IMG/VR virus record: IMGVR_UViG_2681813155_000011
DNA from: a virus
Lineage: Duplodnaviria; Heunggongvirae; Uroviricota; Caudoviricetes
Direction: 5' to 3' (one strand)
Length of the DNA stretch: 36,508 nt
In this document: positions 7,645-36,508 of the stretch, in pieces
Position numbering within the stretch: position 1 is the stretch's first letter
How the letters are laid out: every line of letters begins with the position of its first letter
The notes under the pieces: generated by a model
The model's database searches: none
Told to the model about the DNA's origin: nothing
Seen by the model: the letters and a program-made list of their open reading frames with translations, nothing else
Made by a program: the position numbers and the translations under genes

Positions 7645-8817
7645 TTACGCGCTGACCTGGCTGGCGAAATTCACCAGGTACTGATCGGTGATGCGCTGGC
7701 GCAGCATCAGATTTTCAAGTGGCGGCACTGGCGTGTAGTCATAGTCGATGGTGAGTTTTCCGGCTTTCAGCGTGTCTTTGTCGTTCACCGACTCATCCAG
7801 CCAGCAATCACCACCAATGAGATAGCCCTGACTGACCAGGCTGCGTATTTTGGCGCGGATACCTTCGATAATGTCGCGGGCCAGCGACGGGTTAAGCGGT
7901 TTATCCACCGCCCACATGTGTGCTTCTGCCATTGTGTCCGTCAGCACCTGCGCCGTGCGGGTGTAGTTTTCGAAGGCAAAAAGCGGATCATCGCTCAGAC
8001 AGCGGGAACCCCAGAAGCGGAAACCGTCTTTACGCACAAGCGTGGTGACGTCGTTCTGGTTCAGCAGACCTGCATCGGTTGCCGGGTCCTGCAGATCCCA
8101 GAACACATCTGCAGAAATTCCGGTGACACCGTTCACGCCCACGTTGGACAGGCTTTTGTGCCACCCGGTCTGCTCATCAATTTTGGCACGCAGACCAAGT
8201 GCACGGGCGGTGGCATATGCCGTTGCTTCGGCATTCAGCACCGTGTCCCAGCCAGTAAAGTTGGGCCAGATCAGCATTCCTTCGCGCTGGCTGAAGTTTT
8301 CACGGTAAGTGATCGCCTCCTGTACCGTCTTGCAGCCATACGCTGACAGGTAAGCAAACCCACGCAGGCTTTGCGCCACGCTCAGCAACTCAGTCGCAAC
8401 GGCTTTGTTATCGTGACCTGGCACGCCGAGAATGCGCGGTTTAACGCCGAGCTGTGACTGGGCAGATAACAGAGCTTTCATGCCTGTTTTTTTACCTTCA
8501 GCAGTCACTGCGCCGATGATATTGGTCGTGGTTTCTTCTTCCGTTTCACCCTGCGGCACACGCACAACAACGGTCACGGGTTTTGCCTGGTCAGCGATGG
8601 CATCCAGCGAACGGGCCAGCGTGCCGGACTCACCCGCTTTACCGCTGGCAGTCAGCACATCAGTGATCAGCACAGGTTTGTTAAGAGGAAACATTTTTGC
8701 ATCGGCATCATCGCCCGTGCAGACCATGCCCACGATGGCGGTGCTCACCGTGGTAATGGATCGGGTGCCTTCGTTGACTTCAACAACGCGCACCCCGTGG
8801 TGGTAATCCTGAGCCAT
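7645..8817 (-). CDS. FI: Contractile tail sheath protein (FI-like)
   Basis: 390 aa, first gene after a TGT-N12-ACA element; size matches P2 FI. Confidence 0.8.
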
Positions 8818-8893
8818 AGTGGCGAACCTCCTGATTGGATTAGGCTTCGCCCTATGTTGAAGTGATTGTGCCTGACAAACAGCTAAGCGCAGT

Positions 8894-8911
8894 TGTACCG
8901 TTATTCACACA
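8894..8911 (-). promoter_or_regulatory. Candidate Ogr-dependent late promoter element (TGT-N12-ACA) upstream of FI
   Basis: tgtaccgttattcacaca, about 85 bp upstream of the FI start codon. Confidence 0.5.
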
Positions 8912-8959
8912 AAATGACGGTATTTGTCTACTTGCAGGGATAATCAAAATAATGCTGAT

Positions 8960-9532
8960 TCAGGGGGATTCATTACTCTTATTTGCCGGAAATTTTCTAT
9001 AAATTGTGGAAACACCCACATCAAAAATCAGTGCAATACGCTGTCTTGATTCTCCGGCCTCGAGTAAACGCCCAATCTGTGCCCACTGTTCGGTGGTCAA
9101 CTTAGGACGGCGTCCACCTACTCTGCCTTTGGCACGAGCTGCAGCCAGCCCTGCCCTGGTACGTTCAACTATCAGTTCGCGTTCCATTTCAGCCAGGGCA
9201 CCCATGACATGAAAAAAGAAACGGCCCATTGGGGTACTGGTATCAATACTGTCAGTCAGGCTTCGGAAATTCACACCACGCTGGCGCAACTCCTCTATCA
9301 GCGTAACAAGATGCCGCATACTGCGCCCCAACCTGTCCAGCTTCCAGACAACCAGCGTGTCTCCTGCCGATAGTGTCCTGAGCAGCTTTTTCAGCCCCGG
9401 TCTGTCGGACTTAGTGCCACTGATTTTATCCTCAAAAATCCGCTCACATCCCGCGCAGTTCAGTGCATTACGTTGCAAATCGGTGTTCTGGTCATTTGTT
9501 GACACGCGTACATAGCCAATAAGCATGATCAT
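8960..9532 (-). CDS. Serine DNA invertase (Hin/Gin/Cin/Pin family)
   Basis: N-terminus LIGYVRVSTNDQNTDLQRNAL with catalytic-Ser motif and a C-terminal HTH; abuts an invertible tail-fibre segment. Real start may be the third codon. Confidence 0.88.
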   Translation of the reverse strand: MIMLIGYVRVSTNDQNTDLQRNALNCAGCERIFEDKISGTKSDRPGLKKLLRTLSAGDTLVVWKLDRLGRSMRHLVTLIEELRQRGVNFRSLTDSIDTSTPMGRFFFHVMGALAEMERELIVERTRAGLAAARAKGRVGGRRPKLTTEQWAQIGRLLEAGESRQRIALIFDVGVSTIYRKFPANKSNESP

Positions 9533-21213: not shown

Positions 21214-22980
21214 ATGAACACCACACTGACACCCGCAGATCTCGATCCCCGTCGGCAGGCCATGCTGCTGTACTTTCAGGGATACCGCGTAGCCCGCATT
21301 GCTGAAATGCTGGGCGAGAAAGTTGCAACCGTTCACAGCTGGAAAAAACGCGACAAGTGGGGTGACTATGGGCCGCTGGATCAGATGCAGCTCACCACCG
21401 CCGCCCGCTACTGCCAGCTCATTATGAAGGAGCACAAAGAAGGGAAAGATTTCAAAGAAATTGACCTGCTGGCGCGCCAGTCGGAGCGCCACGCGCGGAT
21501 CGGCAAGTTTAACAATGGCGGCAACGAAGCCGACTTAAACCCTAACGTCGCCAACCGCAACAAAGGGCCGCGCCGTCAGCCGGAAAAGAATGTTTTCACC
21601 GATGAACAGATTGAGAAGCTGGAAGAAATCTTCCATTCCTCCATGTTCAACTACCAGCGCCACTGGTGGGAAGCCGGAAAAACCAATCGCATCCGCAACC
21701 TGCTGAAGTCTCGCCAGATCGGCGCGACCTTTTACTTTGCCCGTGAAGCCCTGATTGACGCCCTGCTGACCGGACGTAACCAGATTTTCCTTTCCGCCAG
21801 TAAGGCACAGGCCCACGTCTTTAAGCAGTACATCATCGACTTCGCCAAAGAAGTCGAGGTGGAGCTGAAAGGCGATCCGATGGTGCTTCCTAACGGGGCC
21901 ACGCTTTACTTCCTCGGCACCAATGCCCGCACGGCCCAGAGTTACCACGGCAACCTGTATCTGGATGAATATTTCTGGATACCGAAATTCCAGGAGCTGC
22001 GCAAAGTGGCTTCCGGTATGGCTATTCACAAAAAATGGCGACAAACCTATTTTTCCACGCCATCCAGCCTGACACACAGTGCTTATCCGTTCTGGTCCGG
22101 TGCGCTGTTCAACCGAGGGCGCAACAAAGCCGATAAGGTGGACATCGACCTGTCCCACAGCAATCTGGCCCCCGGCCTGCTGTGCGCAGACGGGCAGTAC
22201 CGCCAGATAGTCACCGTGGAAGATGCGGTGCGCGGCGGCTGTAACCTGTTCGACCTTGACCAGTTGCGCATGGAGTACAGCCCGGACGAATACCAGAACC
22301 TGCTGATGTGCGAGTTCGTGGACGATCTCGCGTCCGTGTTCCCGCTCAGCGAGCTGCAGGCGTGCATGGTGGACAGTTGGGAAGTCTGGACCGACTTTCA
22401 TGCACTGGCCCTGCGCCCGTTTGGCTGGCGCGAAGTGTGGATCGGATATGACCCGGCGAAAGGTACGCAGAACGGCGACAGCGCCGGATGCGTGGTGGTG
22501 GCGCCGCCAGCCGTGCCGGGCGGTAAGTTCCGCATTCTTGAGCGTCACCAGTGGCGCGGAATGGACTTCCGCGCCCAGGCTGACGCCATCAAAAAACTGA
22601 CCGAACAGTACAACGTGACCTATATCGGTATCGACTCGACCGGCGTTGGTCACGGGGTTTACGAGAACGTGAAAGCGTTTTTTCCTGCCGTCCGGGAGTT
22701 TGTCTACAACCCCAACGTTAAAAACGCCCTGGTACTCAAGGCCTACGACATTATCAGCCACCGCCGTCTGGAGTTTGACGCCGGACACACCGACATAGCG
22801 CAGTCCTTTATGGCAATCCGTCGCGCCACCACCGCCAGTGGCAACCGCCCGACCTATGAAGCCAGCCGCAGCGAAGAAGCCAGCCACGCCGATCTGGCCT
22901 GGGCAACGATGCACGCACTGTTTAACGAACCGCTGCAGGGCGAATCCGCCAATACCAGCAATATTGTGGAGATTTTTTGA
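21214..22980 (+). CDS. P: Terminase large (ATPase) subunit gpP-like
   Basis: 588 aa, size of P2 gpP; divergent from O and followed by overlapping Q. Confidence 0.8.
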   Translation: MNTTLTPADLDPRRQAMLLYFQGYRVARIAEMLGEKVATVHSWKKRDKWGDYGPLDQMQLTTAARYCQLIMKEHKEGKDFKEIDLLARQSERHARIGKFNNGGNEADLNPNVANRNKGPRRQPEKNVFTDEQIEKLEEIFHSSMFNYQRHWWEAGKTNRIRNLLKSRQIGATFYFAREALIDALLTGRNQIFLSASKAQAHVFKQYIIDFAKEVEVELKGDPMVLPNGATLYFLGTNARTAQSYHGNLYLDEYFWIPKFQELRKVASGMAIHKKWRQTYFSTPSSLTHSAYPFWSGALFNRGRNKADKVDIDLSHSNLAPGLLCADGQYRQIVTVEDAVRGGCNLFDLDQLRMEYSPDEYQNLLMCEFVDDLASVFPLSELQACMVDSWEVWTDFHALALRPFGWREVWIGYDPAKGTQNGDSAGCVVVAPPAVPGGKFRILERHQWRGMDFRAQADAIKKLTEQYNVTYIGIDSTGVGHGVYENVKAFFPAVREFVYNPNVKNALVLKAYDIISHRRLEFDAGHTDIAQSFMAIRRATTASGNRPTYEASRSEEASHADLAWATMHALFNEPLQGESANTSNIVEIF

Positions 22981-24014
22981 TGGGAAAGAGTAAGAAGAAC
23001 CGCGCTGCGGCGACGAAACAGATCCAGCTTAAAAGTCAAACTACAGCCGAAGCATTCAGCTTCGGCGATCCCGTTCCTGTTCTGGACCGCCGAGAACTGC
23101 TGGATTATGTGGAATGCGTACAGATGGACCGCTGGTATGAGCCGCCCGTCAGCTTTGACGGACTGGCGCGCACCTTCCGCGCTGCCGTGCATCATAGTTC
23201 CCCGATTGCAGTAAAGTGCAACATTCTGACCAGCACCTACATCCCTCACCCGCTGCTCAGCCAGCAGGCTTTTTCGCGTTTTGTGCAGGACTATCTGGTT
23301 TTTGGTAACGCCTACCTGGAGAAACGCACGAACCGCTTCGGTGAAGTTATCGCCCTTGAGCCTGCACTGGCAAAATACACCCGACGCGGGTTAGACCTGG
23401 ATACCTACTGGTTTGTGCAATACGGTATGACAACCCAGCCGTATCAGTTCACGAAAGGCAGCATTTTTCATCTGATGGAACCGGATATTAATCAGGAGAT
23501 CTACGGCCTGCCCGGTTATCTTTCTGCCATTCCGTCAGCCCTGCTCAACGAGTCCGCCACGCTGTTCCGTCGCAAGTATTACATTAACGGCAGTCATGCG
23601 GGCTTTATCATGTACATGACCGATGCCGCGCAAAACCAGGAGGATGTGAACAACCTCCGCAATGCGATGAAAAGCGCCAAAGGTCCAGGCAACTTCCGCA
23701 ACCTGTTTATGTACTCGCCTAACGGCAAAAAAGACGGGCTTCAGATCATCCCATTGTCAGAAGTCGCGGCGAAGGATGAGTTTTTGAATATCAAAAATGT
23801 CAGCCGCGACGACATGATGGCTGCGCACCGCGTGCCGCCGCAAATGATGGGGATTATGCCTAATAATGTTGGAGGGTTTGGGGATGTGGAGAAGGCCAGT
23901 CGCGTATTTGTACGTAATGAATTAACTCCCTTGCAAAAAAGGCTACAAGAGCTGAACGACTGGCTGGGCGAAGAAGTGATTAAATTTACGCCCTATATTC
24001 TTTCAGAAGAATAA
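22977..24014 (+). CDS. Q: Portal protein gpQ-like
   Basis: 345 aa, size of P2 gpQ; ATGA overlap with the end of P. Confidence 0.8.
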   Translation: MMGKSKKNRAAATKQIQLKSQTTAEAFSFGDPVPVLDRRELLDYVECVQMDRWYEPPVSFDGLARTFRAAVHHSSPIAVKCNILTSTYIPHPLLSQQAFSRFVQDYLVFGNAYLEKRTNRFGEVIALEPALAKYTRRGLDLDTYWFVQYGMTTQPYQFTKGSIFHLMEPDINQEIYGLPGYLSAIPSALLNESATLFRRKYYINGSHAGFIMYMTDAAQNQEDVNNLRNAMKSAKGPGNFRNLFMYSPNGKKDGLQIIPLSEVAAKDEFLNIKNVSRDDMMAAHRVPPQMMGIMPNNVGGFGDVEKASRVFVRNELTPLQKRLQELNDWLGEEVIKFTPYILSEE

Positions 24015-24022
24015 TTCCGAAC

Positions 24023-24721
24023 TTATTTGTTTCTTCTTTGTTCACGCCTTGTCTTGGCTTCGATAAGGCGTTGAGGTTCAGTGTAAAGCCGTTCTAAAAA
24101 AAGATAGGTAAAATCTTCAAGATCCTCAGCAGCAGCTTTATCCAAAATACCTTCATGCGCTCCATCATTTCCGTCATCTTTAACGCATTCAGCTAGTTCC
24201 CTTAAAGCTTCAGGCAGTAGATGATTATCAAATAACCACTCCATTCTTAACCCTAGGCTTCTCCTTATTTTTTGCGCAGGCCCTTGCTCCCCATCAGGAA
24301 GAAGTCCTTTTGTGGCATAATCAAGGCAAAGCCTAAACATGGTTGCTGCTGCATTATAACAACCTATAGCCAAACATTTCGCCCCTTCCTCATATGCACT
24401 ATTGATATGCTCAGGTAAGAACTCTGGTGGCTCCTCTACTGCTAAGTCTGCCGGTGATATAGGCCTAACAACCTCTGCAACTTCCTTTAAGCCGAATATT
24501 CCACTTTCCCAATTATAGCCATCTAAAGTTTTATTTTTCGTTAAAGGTCTGCAAAGAAACATTGTCGTTTTATGACACTCTCGGCAAACACAATAGACCT
24601 CGTACTCGTATGTTTTACCCCCGCCCAATGCATTGTAAACCCTAGTGCAATTCAGCCCATTAACATCAAACGCTATTTTTTGTGATCCACATCGTGGACA
24701 GTCATCCACTAACATAACCAT
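24023..24721 (-). CDS. Cargo protein: N-terminal zinc ribbon + C-terminal DUF4145-like domain (candidate single-gene defence/abortive-infection protein)
   Basis: 232 aa. N-terminus CPRCG...CVCRECHK (four Cys); C-terminus ...LPEALRELAECVKDDGNDGAHEGILDKAAAEDLEDFTYLFLERLY resembles the GN-x-AAH core of DUF4145 as I recall it. GGAGG 8 nt upstream; sits between the candidate cos and Q. Confidence 0.5.
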   Translation of the reverse strand: MVMLVDDCPRCGSQKIAFDVNGLNCTRVYNALGGGKTYEYEVYCVCRECHKTTMFLCRPLTKNKTLDGYNWESGIFGLKEVAEVVRPISPADLAVEEPPEFLPEHINSAYEEGAKCLAIGCYNAAATMFRLCLDYATKGLLPDGEQGPAQKIRRSLGLRMEWLFDNHLLPEALRELAECVKDDGNDGAHEGILDKAAAEDLEDFTYLFLERLYTEPQRLIEAKTRREQRRNK

Positions 24722-24831
24722 GTCAATTACTCCTCCCTATGAAAAAAATGAGTTGAAAAATTGAATATTCACGACTTAAAAAGCTAGCCTATTTAACACC
24801 ATAATTTCATTAATTCAACCATGAGCGCGCG

Positions 24832-24850
24832 CTCGTATCCCCGCCACGCC
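24832..24850 (-). other. Candidate cos (cohesive-end) site
   Basis: Minus strand reads GGCGTGGCGGGGATACGAG; the first 13 nt match the GC-rich start of the 186/P2 cohesive end as I remember it (GGCG(T/A)GGCGGGGA...). Confidence 0.4.
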
Positions 24851-24892
24851 TGCCCGCTTTATGTAGTGGTTTTCATGCACCTGCATGATCTA

Positions 24893-24919
24893 CGCAAAAG
24901 CCCGCCAGTTCTGGCGGGC
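24893..24919 (-). terminator. Rho-independent terminator downstream of the tum-like operon
   Basis: Perfect inverted repeat gcccgccag/ctggcgggc followed on the minus strand by ctttt. Confidence 0.55.
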
Positions 24920-25054
24920 CTTAGCAAAAACGATCCTCAAACGATCATGCGATCTCATGCGGCATAGACATGCACTACAGAGCTAACGCCTCGCAAGGGC
25001 TCGTTGTTCAACCTTGCTGACGCCAGAAGCAAGTTCAGACGCCAGCAACGTTTC

Positions 25055-25288
25055 TTAATGCAGCCAGCTGTCGTCTTCCCACACCTTCTGCATAATTTTC
25101 ATCACTTGTTTTCTTTCTTCGTCCAGTTGCAGTCCGGTTAGTTCCACACCGTTAGAGCTACCTTTGCGAATGCGAATTACCGTTTTGGGATACAGGGGGC
25201 GCAGATTGCGGTAAAGCTCGGATTCAAGGGCGTCCAGGGTAGACTGGCTAATCTTCTGCTCTTTATCGATCATTATTTCAATGCGCAT
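25055..25288 (-). CDS. DinI-like protein
   Basis: 77 aa from an internal Met: MRIEIMIDKEQKISQSTLDALESELYRNLRPLYP...VWEDDSWLH parallels E. coli DinI (MRIEVTIAK...LAGELSRRIQ...TWESADDWF). GAGGTG RBS overlaps the upstream stop. Confidence 0.75.
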   Translation of the reverse strand: MRIEIMIDKEQKISQSTLDALESELYRNLRPLYPKTVIRIRKGSSNGVELTGLQLDEERKQVMKIMQKVWEDDSWLH

Positions 25289-25298
25289 AAAAGTCACC

Positions 25299-25487
25299 TC
25301 AGCTGATGACATCCATTGAGCGGTTGTATTCGTGGGTTCTGATTTTTGCCATGAGTTCATCAGTCAATTCAGAAACCCACTGCAGAGCCAGCCCCTTCTC
25401 TTCATCACTACACTCACTAGCCGCTACAAGCTTAAGAAAAAAATCAATGCGCTGGAGCTTCAAAGACTCCAAAAAATAGTCCTGCAT
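25299..25487 (-). CDS. Small LexA-controlled protein, candidate Tum-like antirepressor
   Basis: 62 aa from MQDYFLESL; AGGAGG 4 nt upstream; translationally coupled to the DinI-like gene; a LexA box lies 42 bp upstream. Confidence 0.5.
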   Translation of the reverse strand: MQDYFLESLKLQRIDFFLKLVAASECSDEEKGLALQWVSELTDELMAKIRTHEYNRSMDVIS

Positions 25488-25528
25488 CTTTCCTCCTATG
25501 ACACCACACGCAACACTGTATGTATAAC

Positions 25529-25548
25529 CACTGTTTATATTTACAGTA
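25529..25548. promoter_or_regulatory. LexA (SOS) box
   Basis: cactgtttatatttacagta = CTGT-N8-ACAG with an AT-rich spacer, the E. coli LexA operator consensus. Confidence 0.75.
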
Positions 25549-25640
25549 TATAATAATCTTACTGATGTAAAACGTTTTTTTACGTTCATCAGCCTGATAT
25601 GCCTGGTATTATTAAGAGCACGAATTGTTAATCCGCGTAA

Positions 25641-28055
25641 TTAATACAGGTTCCGCCACTGATCATCTTCCTGCAAACGCTGGTTCCGATAGAAGATACG
25701 CAGGCCTGCTCCTGACGGAATACTGCCTCCGCGAAGGAGTAAATCGACCTCTTTCTCGCTGCCATCAAATCCTCTGGACTTCAGCTCATACACGAGCTGC
25801 AGTCGCTGATGGTCTGTAATTCGCTGTTTGTAGTCTTTACGCCGTTTCGGTTTCACCAGGCGTAACCTTGCTGCCAGTTCCCGGCGCTCTTTTTTGCTCA
25901 TACTGTGCAGGTAATCGTGCAACTCCTTGTCATCCATGCTGGTAATGTCCGTTCTGGGGTCCCCATTAGCTGATTTATCTTTCTCCTGTTGGTTCAAATT
26001 TTCAGCAAGGGGACAGTTATTGCCACGAGTCCAAGGGGCGCAAGCGCCCTGGTCGGCTGCCGCCTCCTGAACGTCAACGGCCTTACGAACCATTTTCCAC
26101 TTCACGGCATGAGTGCAGATCTTGCCCTCTGCAATAGGTGACCAGATGCCATAAATACGAATGCCGTGATCGCCATAGGCGGTCGGCTCTTCGTTGATTT
26201 CATAAGCAGTTCTGATGAGGTGATATTTGCGGGGAACCAGTACGCCACCCTGCTTCATGATGTAGGTGGCAAAACAACCAGCATCAGCAGCAGCCAGAAT
26301 GGCATCAAGGCGCGGGTTATCCAGTACCGGCGCACCTGCTTTTTTGTCCCCCTGTTGCCTTGCCGCCTGACCAGCCAGCAATCGCAGTTCACGGTAAGCC
26401 TGACGCCCCGGAATGCCAAAGAAGCGGAATTGCTGAACACGATGCAGAGACGCCCAGGCATTAACGTATTCAGCATTATCACGCAGGGATTTCCCCGTTT
26501 CCTTGCTGATCTCGCCAGCCAGACCACGCCCGTCAATGTTCTTACTGATGTATTTCGCGATGTAGCTTGTTGGCGTACCTTTGCGCGGGTTAATCAACTC
26601 AGACTTAAAGCGCGGCCCAGTGTTATTGCCCAGCTCCTCGCGGTCTTCACGGATGGCAAACTTACGCAGTAATGCAGTGATGGTGCGGCGGTCTTTTTTG
26701 CGCATAAAACACAACAGGTGCCAGTGAACTGTACCGTCATGATGCGGCTCAGCCACCCGCACGCCATACCACCGCAATCCGGCTTTGTGCATCGCCTTAC
26801 GAAATGCAGCAAACATGCCGACCAGATAATCACTGCTTTGTCTTACCGTCGCATTTGTCCAGGTTGGGTTGGGCCTGCCGTTATTTAGCGTGGAATGGAA
26901 ACGTGACGGACAGGTGATGGTGTAGAAAACGGCGCAGTCACCGCGCATTTCCGCGATAAGCTCCAGACCTTTAACACAGGCCATCATCTCATTGCGGCGA
27001 TGCGCTGGGTTGCTGCTGCTGGCGTTTACCACATCCTCCATGTCCAGCGTGTCGCCGTCTTCGTTCACCAGTTCATGAGAACGGAAAAACTCCAGCGACT
27101 TACGGCGCTGCTCACGTTTATGCATCACGGCTTCATAGCTGACATAAGGAGATGCTTTTTTGCTGACAAGGCAGACTGCACGCAACTGCTCTTCCCGCCA
27201 TTCGCAACGCATCTTCCATAATTTCCGATACCACCAGTCGGCGCACAACATACGCGCCAGCGAACCCGGAATGAGTTCATAGGGCACGGGTTTACGGCGG
27301 TTTCTTTTCCGACGGAGTTGCTCAAACGCAGGCGGGATGACATCCAGACGCAGGGTTTCCGCTGCCACCCTTTCCCATGTATTGCGGATTTCTTCTGGCT
27401 TAACGTCATCGGTGGCATACAAATCGCCACAAGCGGCATCAAGGCACATACTCATATGCGCAGCTACCAGGGTGGACAGGCGTTTCACCTGATCCTGACT
27501 CATTTCAGGCAGGATCAGCAGGCCGTCCAGCCCTTCATGGCTTGCCATAAAGCGAAAAGATGCAGATAGCTGACTGTCGCGTACATGCTCCAGTCGTTCC
27601 AGACATGGCTTAATCGTCTCACGTAAATAGCGGGAATAAGCCTTTGGCCTGCCAAGGCTGCTGAAGTATTCAATACGTTGCATCAGCGGCTTGCTGATAT
27701 GGGAAGGCTGGGCGTTGACGTCCGCCAGAATGACCATATCCGGATTAAAACGCTGCTGCTCATGCGCCAGCTTTGCCCGACTAATGAGCTTATCCTGTTC
27801 CATTTCGCGCTGGACAGGATCACGGGATTCATTAAAGAAATAACGCTCCCAGACCTGATCACTCAGCGCCTCACGGCGCAGCTGTTCCTGCTCGTTATCG
27901 GCAGCGTACAGAGTGATCAGGTTTGAAAGCGTAGAAACCGGCGCAACTTCCACCGGGTCCAGATAAGGGTTAATGGCCTTTTTCGGGCTGTTCCATGAGA
28001 ACGATGCGGCAGCTTCGTTAAAGCCGCAGCAGTTGTTCATATCGGCATGACTCAT
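25641..28055 (-). CDS. A: Replication initiation protein (P2/186 gene A-like)
   Basis: 804 aa; position between the early operon and the tum/cos region as in P2/186. Called on size and synteny; motifs not verified. Confidence 0.7.
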
Positions 28056-32808: not shown

Positions 32809-34035
32809 ATGACTCTCCATCAAACTTTATCTAAAGAATTAAGAGATTTATTTGTTAGTATTTTAAGACGTTCTCTTTTTCGCCCCCCCATCAAAATAAA
32901 TGGGGATATAGTCTCTGATTTTTCAAACAGATGCGAGCAGTTCAAAGAGTGCCTAAATGAATACATTTGTGATAACAATAATGCTGCTTCTGAAAGAGTT
33001 AAACCAAGAATTAAAACTATTGAAAAAATACAACATGGATTAACTAATTCTCTTAAAGCATTTTTATCTGGCGACATTAAAGGAGCCTACGATATTTTTG
33101 ATGAAGTTTTATCATACCCTACTGTCTATAGACATCTAAGAAGAATATCCATTCCACTAAAAGAAATATGTAATAAGCACAAGCCTTTATTCAGGGTAAG
33201 AAAGTCAGATAGACCAGTCGTAACAAGAAAGGAAATCTTTCATATCCCATTCACTCATCGACATCTTGTCAATGCTCAACGCTATTCCGTTGCAGGTTTG
33301 CCATGCCTTTACTTAGGTTCATCTCTCTATATATGCTGGCAGGAAATGGATAAACCTGACTTTGATAAATTATACCTATCATCATTTATATCTTGGGATG
33401 AGGAATCCTATATTTTAAATTTAGCTGCAGATTTTCTTTACAGTAGAACCGCTAAAGGATTTTACGGTGATATTAGTAATAGAGACAACCTCATTAAAAT
33501 ATCATATTTAACTTTATGGCCTCTGATAATTGCATGTAATTATTTAAAGCAGAATGAAAACTCTTCATTTAATCAAGAATATATCATCCCAAATTTGTTA
33601 ATGCAGTGGATAAGTCGACTTGAAGATAGAGCTATTGTCGGCATAGCATATCGCTCAACAAAAATAAAAAGAACAGCAAACTCACACTTAGCAACTAATG
33701 TCGTCTTGCCTCCAAAAGTAAACTATGAAGACACAATCACAAAACCTTATTGTCAGAAACTATTGTCAATGTTTGAGTTTACTCAACCTGTATCATGGCA
33801 GGTTTTGAAAACATTAGACTATAAAATTGATAATGAAATAAATCAAGAGCAAGAAAAAGCAATTCATTTACTAAAACAGAAAGAAAGATTAAGTGGCATA
33901 AAAGATTTAAATGAAGATCTTATAAACCTTTATCCTTTAACAGACTTCTACAAGCTAGAACAGTGCATGGATCGCCTGCTGCAGTATGATGTACTTGAGA
34001 TAAAATCTGGCGGCACTTTGGCGGCAGAGCATTAA
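32809..34035 (+). CDS. Cargo protein with RES-domain-like core (candidate NAD+-targeting toxin/defence effector)
   Basis: 408 aa, strongly AT-rich, starts 3 bp after the int stop. QRYSVAGLPCLYLGSSLYICWQE and IVGIAYRSTKIKRTANSHLATNVVLPP fit the Arg / Glu / Ser motif order of the RES domain; extra N- and C-terminal regions of unknown fold. Confidence 0.5.
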   Translation: MTLHQTLSKELRDLFVSILRRSLFRPPIKINGDIVSDFSNRCEQFKECLNEYICDNNNAASERVKPRIKTIEKIQHGLTNSLKAFLSGDIKGAYDIFDEVLSYPTVYRHLRRISIPLKEICNKHKPLFRVRKSDRPVVTRKEIFHIPFTHRHLVNAQRYSVAGLPCLYLGSSLYICWQEMDKPDFDKLYLSSFISWDEESYILNLAADFLYSRTAKGFYGDISNRDNLIKISYLTLWPLIIACNYLKQNENSSFNQEYIIPNLLMQWISRLEDRAIVGIAYRSTKIKRTANSHLATNVVLPPKVNYEDTITKPYCQKLLSMFEFTQPVSWQVLKTLDYKIDNEINQEQEKAIHLLKQKERLSGIKDLNEDLINLYPLTDFYKLEQCMDRLLQYDVLEIKSGGTLAAEH

Positions 34036-34369: not shown

Positions 34370-35611
34370 ATGGCAAGACAAACCAAACCTCTATCCGTTA
34401 AGGAAATCGAATCTGCTAAACCCAAGGAAGCGGACTACGTTCTCTATGATGGCGATGGCCTTGAGCTACTCATTAAATCCAGCGGGAGTAAAATCTGGCA
34501 GTTTCGCTACATTCGCCCTGTCACCAAGACACGAGCAAAGAAAAGCATAGGCCCTTACCCGTCAGTTACCCTTGCCGATGCCAGAAACTACCGTGCAGAG
34601 TCCCGCTCACTCCTAGCTAAACAGATTGATCCGCAGGAACATCAGCAAGAACAATTGCGTAGTTCGCTGGAAGCCAAAACCAATACTTTCCAGCTCGTAG
34701 CTGAACGTTGGTGGAATGTGAAGAAAGCCAGTGTGACAGAGGACTATGCGGAAGATATCTGGCGCTCTCTTGAAAGAGATGTCTTTCCTGCGATTGGCGA
34801 CGTTAGCGTTACAGATATTAAAGCTCATACACTGGTTCAGGCCGTACAACCGGTTCAGGCCAGAGGAGCACTGGAAACGGTTCGTCGCCTGTGTCAACGT
34901 ATTAATGAGGTCATGATCTATGCCCAGAACACAGGGCTGATTGATGCTGTTCCCAGCGTTAATATCGGTAAAGCCTTCGAAAAGCCTCAGAAAAAGAACA
35001 TGCCCAGCATTCGACCGGATCAGCTATCTCAACTGATGCAGACAATGCGAACAGCCAGCATTAGCCTTTCCACACGCTGCCTGTTCATGTGGCAACTTCT
35101 TACTATTACCCGCCCTGCCGAAGCGGCTGAAGCTCGCTGGGAAGAAGTAGACATAGAAGCGCAAGAGTGGAAGATTCCCGCAGCACGCATGAAAATGAAC
35201 CGCGACCATACTGTTCCATTGTCAGATGAAGCAATAGCTGTGCTGGAGATGATGAAACCGCTAAGCGGCAACCGAGAATTTATCTTTCCTAGCCGTATCA
35301 AGCCCAACCAGCCTATGAACAGTCAGACTGTTAACGCCTCACTAAAACGCGCAGGTTTTGGTGGTGTGCTTGTTTCGCATGGTCTGAGATCAATTGCCAG
35401 TACGGCTCTTAATGAACAAGGCTTTCCGCCTGATGCCATTGAGGCAGCATTGGCCCATGTGGATAAGAATGAGGTTCGTCGTGCTTATAACCGCAGCGAT
35501 TACCTGGAACAGCGTCGCCCGATGATGCAATGGTGGGCAAATTTTGTGATGGCAGCGGATCGTGGAAGCATGATTGAAGGTGGGATAAAAGGAATGAAGC
35601 TAGTTGGGTGA
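34370..35611 (+). CDS. intA: P4/CP4-57-family integrase
   Basis: 413 aa, MARQTKPLSVKEIESAKPKEADYVLYDGDGLELLIKSSGSKIWQFRY... resembles E. coli IntA, which sits at ssrA in K-12. Confidence 0.8.
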   Translation: MARQTKPLSVKEIESAKPKEADYVLYDGDGLELLIKSSGSKIWQFRYIRPVTKTRAKKSIGPYPSVTLADARNYRAESRSLLAKQIDPQEHQQEQLRSSLEAKTNTFQLVAERWWNVKKASVTEDYAEDIWRSLERDVFPAIGDVSVTDIKAHTLVQAVQPVQARGALETVRRLCQRINEVMIYAQNTGLIDAVPSVNIGKAFEKPQKKNMPSIRPDQLSQLMQTMRTASISLSTRCLFMWQLLTITRPAEAAEARWEEVDIEAQEWKIPAARMKMNRDHTVPLSDEAIAVLEMMKPLSGNREFIFPSRIKPNQPMNSQTVNASLKRAGFGGVLVSHGLRSIASTALNEQGFPPDAIEAALAHVDKNEVRRAYNRSDYLEQRRPMMQWWANFVMAADRGSMIEGGIKGMKLVG

Positions 35612-35810: not shown

Positions 35811-36086
35811 GTGGCTTCCATTTCCATCAGATGTCCTTCCTGCTCCGCTACTGAAGGCGTGGTGCGTAACGGCAAAAGCACTGCCGGACATCAGCGCTAT
35901 CTCTGCTCTCATTGCCGTAAAACATGGCAACTACAGTTCACTTACACCGCCTCTCAGCCCGGTACGCACCAGAAAATCATTGATATGGCCATGAATGGCG
36001 TCGGATGTCGCGCCAGTGCACGCATTATGGGCGTTGGCCTCAACACGGTTTTACGTCACTTAAAAAAATCAGGCCGCAGTCGGTAA
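35811..36086 (+). CDS. insA: IS1 InsA
   Basis: 91 aa [86 protein letters not shown]. Confidence 0.9.
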
Positions 36087-36508
36087 CCTCGCGCATACAA
36101 CCAGGCAGTGATGTGATTGTCTGCGCTGAAATGGACGAACATTGGGGCTACGTCGGTGCTAAATCACGTCAGCGCTGGCTGTTTTACGCGTATGACAGGA
36201 TACGGAGGACGGTTGTGGCGCACGTCTTCGGTGAACGCACTCTGGCCACACTGGAGCGTCTTCTGAGCCTGCTGTCGGCCTTTGAGGTCGTGGTATGGAT
36301 GACGGATGGCTGGCCGCTGTATGAATCACGCCTGAAGGGAAAGCTGCACGTTATCAGCAAGCGTTACACTCAGCGCATTGAGCGACATAATCTGAATCTG
36401 AGACAACATCTGGCAAGGCTGGTACGGAAGTCACTGTCGTTCTCAAAATCGGTGGAGTTGCATGACAAGGTCATCGGGCATTATCTGAACATAAAACACT
36501 ATCAGTAA
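36005..36508 (+). CDS. insB: IS1 InsB frame (transposase made as InsAB' by -1 frameshift)
   Basis: 167 aa ...[56 protein letters not shown]...; A-rich slippery run ttaaaaaaatc at 36060..36070. Confidence 0.85.

Follow-up and report, generated by a model that had tools for sequence, protein, structure and literature searches.

A putative RAZR-like zinc-ribbon/DUF4145 defence protein encoded between cos and the portal gene of a P2-like prophage

Does a gene lodged directly against the portal gene of a P2-like prophage protect the lysogen from other phages, or does it serve the phage that carries it? The question is raised by a 36,508-nucleotide (nt) stretch of DNA from a member of the Caudoviricetes (IMG/VR record IMGVR_UViG_2681813155_000011; hereafter the window), in which the segment between portal gene Q and the cos site encodes a protein with an N-terminal zinc ribbon and a C-terminal DUF4145/HEPN domain. 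A first-pass annotation of the sequence had regarded this gene as a candidate single-gene anti-phage system. The proposal is supported here, and it becomes both stronger and less novel because the zinc-finger plus DUF4145 architecture is that of RAZR, a proven single-protein abortive-infection RNase. Judged by its sequence, the window protein is a distant sister of RAZR that shares this architecture and lies outside the RAZR family proper. It probably acts alone as an abortive-infection defence of the RAZR type, and a P2-like prophage carries its gene between cos and portal as cargo that is expressed in the lysogen. The kind of system (RAZR/PD-T7-4), the annotated domain and the listing of the gene as hotspot cargo are already known; membership in a large, distinct sister family of putative function and the fixed slot fused to the portal 3' end in P2-like phages appear to be new.

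The gene product and its likeness to RAZR

PD-T7-4 emerged from a functional selection and was termed 'Zn finger-HEPN' (Vassallo 2022, PMC9519451); the protein of E. coli UMB1727 was later renamed RAZR, for ring-activated zinc-finger RNase (PDB 9Y9C/9Y6U; Zhang 2026, PMC13017515). It consists of an N-terminal Cys4 zinc ribbon and a C-terminal DUF4145/HEPN domain, the latter termed 'divergent' by its authors. RAZR alone is non-toxic and forms linear oligomers. During infection it assembles as a 24-mer wrapped round ~170-Angstrom rings, the triggers being the portal proteins of T7, T3 and SECphi18 and the Erf-like recombinase of SECphi27, and the activated enzyme cleaves RNA non-specifically, leading to abortive infection. 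Defence is abolished by the exchanges R146A and H154A, and the linker between both domains is required for function. The zinc-finger domain (ZFD) is variable and sets specificity, homologues telling apart single-residue portal variants through it, and higher-order oligomerisation involves D179, D180 and R184 of a HEPN helix together with V21 of the ZFD (all PMC13017515).

In the window, the open reading frame (ORF) was found as the first-pass annotation had described it, with an ATG start, 232 codons for amino acids (aa) and the same translation. In a tblastn comparison, the protein matched CARTA_1 of Escherichia phage Cartapus, the P2-like prophage of E. coli LF82, with 100 % identity. The gene, its parts and its signals are as follows.

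24023..24721, minus strand: coding sequence including stop; zinc-ribbon plus DUF4145/HEPN protein, identical to CARTA_1 / WP_000245245 (tblastn, LF82 annotation)
24455..24721, minus strand: N-terminal zinc-ribbon, sensor-like domain, residues 1 to ~89 (four cysteines and variability)
24698-24700, 24689-24691, 24584-24586 and 24575-24577, minus strand: codons of C8, C11, C46 and C49, respectively
24410..24454, minus strand: linker PADLAVEEPPEFLPE, residues 90-104, aligned with the RAZR linker PAAGNVELPNPDMPE (BLASTP, hhalign)
24062..24409, minus strand: DUF4145/divergent HEPN RNase-like domain, residues ~105-220 (matches to Pfam PF13643, 9y9c_OA and P0288)
24155..24181, minus strand: putative catalytic motif K181-D-D-G-N185-D-G-A-H189, in register with RAZR R146-I-V-G-N150-Q-A-V-H154
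24026..24061, minus strand: arginine-rich C-terminal tail EAKTRREQRRNK, residues 221-232, with conserved R225, R226 and R229
24730..24737, minus strand: Shine-Dalgarno sequence GGGAGGAG, read from the sequence, AGGAG 8 nt before ATG
24790..24818, minus strand: promoter-like TTGAAT-17-TAAATA, the single match in the window

The zinc-ribbon cysteines are arranged as C8-x2-C11 and C46-x2-C49, and the HEPN part carries the segment CVKDDGNDGAH. A C-terminal resemblance to DUF4145 had been noted previously from the GNDGAH motif, and the profile search that had been suggested as a check bears it out: Pfam DUF4145 (PF13643) matches residues 114-203 (E=4.5e-7; 30.3 bits against a gathering cutoff of 23.1) and spans the GN..AH core. 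Defence-system profiles, likewise proposed for comparison, yielded PD-T7-4 as the sole PADLOC model matched (E=1.2e-6, 26.1 bits, model positions 39-165); the same model is matched by 75 of 93 members of the wider family. The match does not amount to full-length membership in the PD-T7-4 family profile. Among PHROGs, phrog_1305 ('DNA binding protein') was retrieved with E=9.5e-53, and NCBIfam gave no match for the 232-aa protein. The Lar restriction-alleviation protein (PF14354) was discarded as insignificant (8.6 bits against a cutoff of 28.6, E=3.1).

Neither the protein sequence by itself nor a narrow profile of 32 sequences gave a match among PDB sequences. The broad family profile of 93 sequences, in turn, retrieved the RAZR structure 9Y9C (chain 9y9c_OA, E=8.4e-6), profile positions 93-220 aligning clearly with residues 71-191 of the chain, i.e. 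with linker and HEPN domain. In this alignment, with RAZR residues counted along the chain, R146, N150 and H154 correspond to K181, N185 and H189 of the window protein, R105 (LLRLCL) to R130 (MFRLCLD), and E88 to E112; the linker conserved between ZFD and HEPN is matched as well. The zinc-ribbon part is only weakly co-linear with CPHC...CSHC of RAZR (4.5 bits) and aligned just at the cysteine pairs. For the reverse comparison, RAZR-family proteins were collected with the HEPN fragment from the 9y9c alignment and then aligned; one of them, P0288, shares 27 % identity with the window protein over 126 aa (BLASTP, E=2e-5). The E-values between both families are modest, while several independent methods agree and the motifs stand in register.

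Both kinds of protein thus have in common a single chain of ~210-230 aa with a Cys4 ribbon, a conserved Pro/Glu-rich linker and a C-terminal DUF4145/divergent HEPN domain, a basic residue-x3-N-x3-H motif in register with R146/N150/H154, the conserved 'RLC' helix around R105 and R130, a sensor domain far more variable than the RNase domain, carriage by mobile elements and no partner gene. They differ in that identity is confined to linker and HEPN domain and in that the arginine-rich tail of the window protein takes the place of ...GIExRDK in RAZR. The oligomerisation residues D179, D180 and R184 of RAZR correspond to E210, R211 and E215, which are conserved and charged, with the sign reversed at the D180 and R184 positions. 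The canonical HEPN motif R-x4-6-H is replaced by K-x7-H in the window protein and by R-x7-H in most of its family and in RAZR. Since the PD-T7-4 model scores the window protein with 26 bits as compared to 313-338 bits for true, full-length RAZR proteins, identity is ~27 % and the two sets of homologues do not overlap, the protein is classified, on sequence grounds, as a distant sister and not as a member of RAZR proper.

Other known proteins are further removed. Pfam DUF4145 denotes a domain only, within the HEPN superfamily, and is found in restriction and abortive-infection contexts, e.g. in BxaP (PMC10799925); BxaP and the restriction-enzyme fusions have other architectures and no zinc ribbon. 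DS-38 (DefensePredictor; WP_001313577.1), a validated E. coli defence system, likewise combines a zinc finger and a HEPN nuclease in a single protein. It was rejected as the same protein, WP_001313577.1 having ~366 aa (gene 8089-9189), and its zinc finger is, according to the DefensePredictor authors, unlike that of PD-T7-4.

Cargo position, conservation and lysogenic expression

The first-pass annotation had assigned the gene to the classic P2 moron site, in agreement with the published gpA-cos-gpQ defence hotspot of P2 (Rousset 2022, PMC9122126; PMC9519451). WP_000245245 is itself catalogued as 'DUF4145' in Table S5A of Rousset et al. (PMC9122126); it is absent from the text of the other supplementary files of that study, and there is therefore no sign that it was tested there. 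Among 5,426 complete E. coli genomes, 43 contain the gene, each as a single chromosomal copy. Its G+C content of 41.8 %, as compared to about 53-57 % in neighbouring phage genes, marks it as imported cargo. Position between gpA and gpQ next to cos, variable presence and atypical composition are all characteristic of P2-hotspot cargo (old, tin, retrons, TIR systems and others; Rousset 2022), with which the gene shares the hotspot, low G+C content and variable occupancy. Unlike old and tin of P2, which are located on the A side of cos, the present gene always lies between cos and Q, immediately next to the portal gene.

The family is large: an exhaustive search at E<=1e-3 returned 927 cluster representatives (50 % identity), 137 of them with E<=1e-30. 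Genomes harbouring relatives at the species level belong to Enterobacterales, Burkholderiales, Pseudomonas, Vibrio, Nitrospirota, Verrucomicrobiota, Planctomycetota, Omnitrophota, Campylobacterota and Alphaproteobacteria. The four-cysteine ribbon reported previously holds across the family, C8, C11, C46 and C49 being invariant or almost so among 32 close relatives and among 93 distant ones (92-93 of the latter). In the distant set, R130 is present in all 93 sequences, H189 in 91 and N185 in 88 (Asp in the remaining 5); position 181 is occupied by Arg in 57, by Lys in 29 and by other residues in 7, and R225, R226 and R229 of the tail are conserved in 81-88. All members of the close family have four further cysteines in the HEPN-like domain (C116, C121, C132 and C179), which recur in 63-82 of the 93 distant relatives. 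Of these, C132 and C179 also occur in RAZR (RLC, C-x-R), unlike C116 and C121. The four may have a structural role or constitute a second metal site.

Between P2-borne alleles the ratio of non-synonymous to synonymous change (dN/dS) is 0.04-0.12 with synonymous change near saturation, showing that the gene is under strong purifying selection. Constraint is distributed unevenly. In most allele pairs, non-synonymous change (pN) in the zinc-ribbon half is 2-5 times that of the HEPN half, and the majority fraction is 0.36-0.46 in the zinc-ribbon domain versus 0.57-0.76 in the HEPN domain; a faster-evolving ZFD is the pattern reported for RAZR, too (PMC13017515).

Expression data are available for an identical gene, CARTA_1 (LF82_788), as log2 values in Table S1 of an RNA sequencing study of LF82 (PMC9928086). 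They amount to ~4.7 in overnight LB culture, to 7.0-7.6 in culture medium (samples B1 and B6) and to 9.2-9.6 inside macrophages (samples MB1 and MB6), whereas the adjacent portal gene remains at 2.5-3.1 in all conditions. Expression is thus ~30-fold higher in macrophages than in overnight LB, with late genes silent, and up to ~100-fold above that of the portal gene; in LB it falls just under the 5-fold cutoff used by the authors for morons. Because CARTA_1 is expressed while the adjacent portal gene is silent, the gene has a promoter of its own that is active in the lysogen. The activity of this promoter seems to depend on growth conditions or stress. In a further study (PMC5952863), LF82_788 is merely an entry in a table of localisation in HeLa cells and uninformative. 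Transcription of the identical gene in LF82, together with the low dN/dS of the homologues, confirms that the ORF is a genuine gene and more than a chance reading frame.

The GGAGG ribosome-binding site that had been proposed is present upstream of the gene (GGAGG/AGGAG, see above). The proposed promoter motif TTGAAT-17-TAAATA exists as well, but agrees with merely 7 of 12 consensus positions and was not called at 24790-24818 by the promoter scanner; a TG one base upstream of the -10 element lends it an extended -10 look. The promoter region is 99.8 % identical to that of Cartapus, whose copy of the gene is transcribed in the lysogen (window 23900-24882 corresponding to Cartapus record positions 983-1, at the left genome end). 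At the other end, the stop codons of the gene and of the convergent portal gene Q are separated by 8 nt (24015-24022), and no intrinsic terminator was detected by a terminator scan for the gene or between it and portal gene Q. Given this short gap and the lack of a detected intrinsic terminator, the lysogenic transcript would be expected to enter the portal 3' end as antisense, barring some other termination.

Defence as compared to other functions

If the protein acts as RAZR does, it would reside in the uninfected lysogen in an inactive state, as dimers or linear oligomers. Upon infection, the variable zinc ribbon would bind a multimeric protein of the infecting phage, perhaps a ring formed by its portal protein or recombinase, and the resulting assembly would position HEPN pairs into active RNase sites. 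Non-specific RNA cleavage would then stop translation and abort the infection, to the benefit of the lysogen population and its prophage. Activation by a ring is considerably less certain than the defence function as such, and trigger and excluded phages probably differ from those of RAZR, since the sensor domains are unrelated in sequence. In this capacity the gene would be a likely contributor to phage resistance in lysogens of E. coli, LF82 among them. RAZR itself has so far been described from a single, narrow enterobacterial family; the sister family is far larger and combines the same architecture with a different sensor domain. If active, it would make the coupling of a zinc ribbon sensing phage assembly to a HEPN RNase a far wider principle with many new trigger specificities, and the location of the gene, immediately beside the portal gene of the prophage that carries it, would offer a natural test of how portal-sensing immunity avoids or exploits the self portal.

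Several observations weigh against a RAZR-like defence function. Apart from the low PD-T7-4 score of the window protein, a comparison of both family alignments by hhalign gave E=0.0036 over 120 columns (linker and HEPN domain) at a probability of 9 %. The ZFD is ~25 residues longer than that of RAZR (between the second CxxC and the linker) and unalignable, and in the clade of the window protein Lys (here Lys181) occupies the position of the essential R146, which renders catalysis with Lys putative. A structure model from the single sequence reached a pLDDT of 39, so that similarity of fold and oligomer interface rests on the alignments. No experiments on this protein or its family were found in the literature, defence genes are only sparsely enriched around the copies outside phages, and the fixed slot next to the portal across deep divergence could point to a role in service of the phage instead.

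Neighbourhoods were analysed by a search for related loci followed by ORF and neighbour comparison, for 80 species-level loci and, separately, for 80 viral contigs. Besides the P2 portal and terminase, no ORF family recurs next to the gene in the 80 species-level loci, which argues against an obligate partner gene and agrees with the single-gene character assigned previously. Many loci have an ORF on the same strand ending just upstream; these ORFs are not mutually homologous and were dismissed as a conserved partner. Neighbours are heterogeneous, with scattered resolvases, integrases, transposases, TIR, methylases, DpdF and RmrA among housekeeping genes, and only ~6 of the 80 loci represent P2-type contexts. 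The portal gene next to it in the window has these coordinates.

22977-24014, plus strand: portal gene Q (Pfam Phage_portal)
23877..24014, plus strand: last 45 codons and stop of portal gene Q, part of a low-G+C module (G+C content and co-variation)

A P2-type portal gene is found nearby in ~50 of the 80 viral contigs, and in ~48 of these the gene lies convergently and directly against its 3' end, with 14-48 nt between the alignment ends. This adjacency holds down to ~50 % identity of the gene and ~62-68 % identity of the portal. The abutting arrangement is common but not universal, as 1.1-2.3 kb of extra sequence separate gene and portal in a few P2-like elements, namely a locus of Enterobacter wuhouensis (L014) and two viral contigs (L125, L134). 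Other viral contigs include Mu-like phages (GemA/Mor; L156, L158, L162 and L163) and filamentous phages (Zot; four among L140-L166), with 39-49 % identity of the gene; in several other contigs the gene lies less than 2 kb from the contig end. Annotated relatives occur also in Stx lambdoid, Burkholderia and Gordonia phages.

The link extends into the portal gene itself, whose last 45 codons have a G+C content of 42.0 %, as compared to 52.8 % in its remaining part. Across 33 distinct gene-portal pairs, identity of the gene correlates with that of the last 45 portal residues with a Spearman coefficient of 0.85 and with that of the rest of the portal with 0.66; in pairs with portals more than 85 % identical, the coefficient is 0.81 with the last 45 residues and 0.30 with the portal as a whole. 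No correction for phylogeny was applied to these values, and they could be due to nothing more than physical linkage. As the last 45 codons share the G+C content of the gene and co-vary with its allele, the exchangeable module seems to start within the portal 3' end, with a recombination boundary inside the portal gene.

Such a fixed and co-varying arrangement, found even at about half identity of the gene, together with the low G+C content of the portal end and the binding of RAZR to portal rings, would also suit a protein serving the phage in connection with portal or DNA packaging, be it a portal-associated factor or an RNase or regulator timed by assembly of its own portal ring. Such a function is nevertheless rather unlikely. 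The gene is transcribed in the lysogen far above a silent portal gene, most species-level relatives are not located next to any P2 gene and others reside in Mu-like and filamentous phages, and plain physical linkage explains why the gene co-varies with the 135 nt of portal sequence closest to it. Moreover, P2-like phages evidently do not need the gene, as it is rare among E. coli genomes although P2-like prophages are common there (PMC9122126).

A related possibility, doubtful but compatible with defence, is that the gene and the last ~45 portal codons are inherited together as a 'sensor plus self-portal' module, i.e. as a self/non-self pair. A RAZR-like sensor would then detect foreign portal or ring assemblies and would not fire on the portal allele of its own phage, or would do so only at a set time, and the rapid diversification of the zinc ribbon at this fixed slot would record an arms race among P2-like phages, satellites and other phages. 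Another view takes the protein, instead of a general anti-phage system, as a weapon between mobile elements that excludes other P2-like phages, or P4-type satellites using a P2-type portal, with the zinc ribbon telling self from foreign portal alleles. Systems in the P2 hotspot can indeed target relatives of P2 (PMC9122126), RAZR homologues separate single-residue portal variants through the ZFD (PMC13017515), and ZFD alleles 26-100 % identical occupy one slot beside portals 84-100 % identical. This view is unlikely to hold, however: its targets are hypothetical, and the family is widespread in bacteria and in phages without P2-type portals. It would, besides, be a special case of the proposed abortive-infection defence and not an alternative mechanism.

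The match to phrog_1305, the invariant zinc ribbon, the conserved RR..RR tail and the Lys in place of the canonical HEPN Arg could also indicate a regulator which binds nucleic acids sequence-specifically via zinc ribbon and arginine-rich tail, its HEPN-like scaffold being catalytically dead. The PHROG label is an unverified annotation, however, and RAZR, the closest relative that has been characterised, is an RNase. With N185 and H189 almost invariant, Arg or Lys at position 181 in nearly all relatives and the HEPN half under the strongest constraint, conservation is as expected of an enzyme. A regulator without catalytic function is therefore very unlikely. Finally, a toxin of a toxin-antitoxin or addiction module (HEPN-MNT-like) stabilising the prophage is highly improbable despite the common use of HEPN domains as such toxins (PMC13017515) and the frequent toxin-antitoxin pairs in prophage cargo, as in LF82, for no partner ORF exists between cos on one side and the convergent portal gene 8 nt away on the other, no neighbour is conserved in the 80 loci, RAZR alone is non-toxic (PMC13017515), and HEPN-MNT itself was rejected on the lack of an adjacent MNT (nucleotidyltransferase) antitoxin gene.

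The prophage and its other cargo

The window comprises a P2-like prophage beside ssrA (tmRNA at 698-1060), related to Cartapus but distinct from it. Features around cos other than the gene and the portal are the following.

24824..24882 (approx.), no strand assigned: cos site, by homology to Cartapus record 1-59, annotated as 'putative cos site, homologous to the cos of P2'
25058-25288: DinI-family gene on the A side of cos (Pfam DinI, E=6.6e-23)
25302-25487: ORF of 62 aa on the A side of cos
25641-28055: replication gene A

The interval from gene A to gene Q had been described as holding a single gene. This is correct for the part between cos and Q, of which the gene is the sole occupant, whereas the A side contains in addition the DinI-family gene and the 62-aa ORF. 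The segment from cos to gpA (24883-25640) is ~950 nt shorter than in Cartapus/LF82 and devoid of CARTA_46 and CARTA_47, the latter being a lysogen-expressed moron in LF82, 7-fold above background; for this reason, the prophage in the window is not that of LF82 itself.

Two non-core ORFs at the prophage ends, at 1184-1666 and 32809-34035, possibly represent cargo of the second P2 hotspot. The first codes for a 160-aa protein with weak matches to BRCT and to PADLOC PDC-S48, a homologue of Cartapus CARTA_32, which is expressed 15-fold above background in LF82. The second is located just after the integrase gene and codes for a 408-aa protein without Pfam or PADLOC match, annotated in Cartapus as putative RES/NAD+-binding protein. 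Beyond the prophage, a second tyrosine integrase gene (Arm-DNA-bind_3 and Phage_integrase; 34370-35611) and an IS1 transposase gene (36005-36508) were identified, which suggests a tandem array of elements at ssrA.

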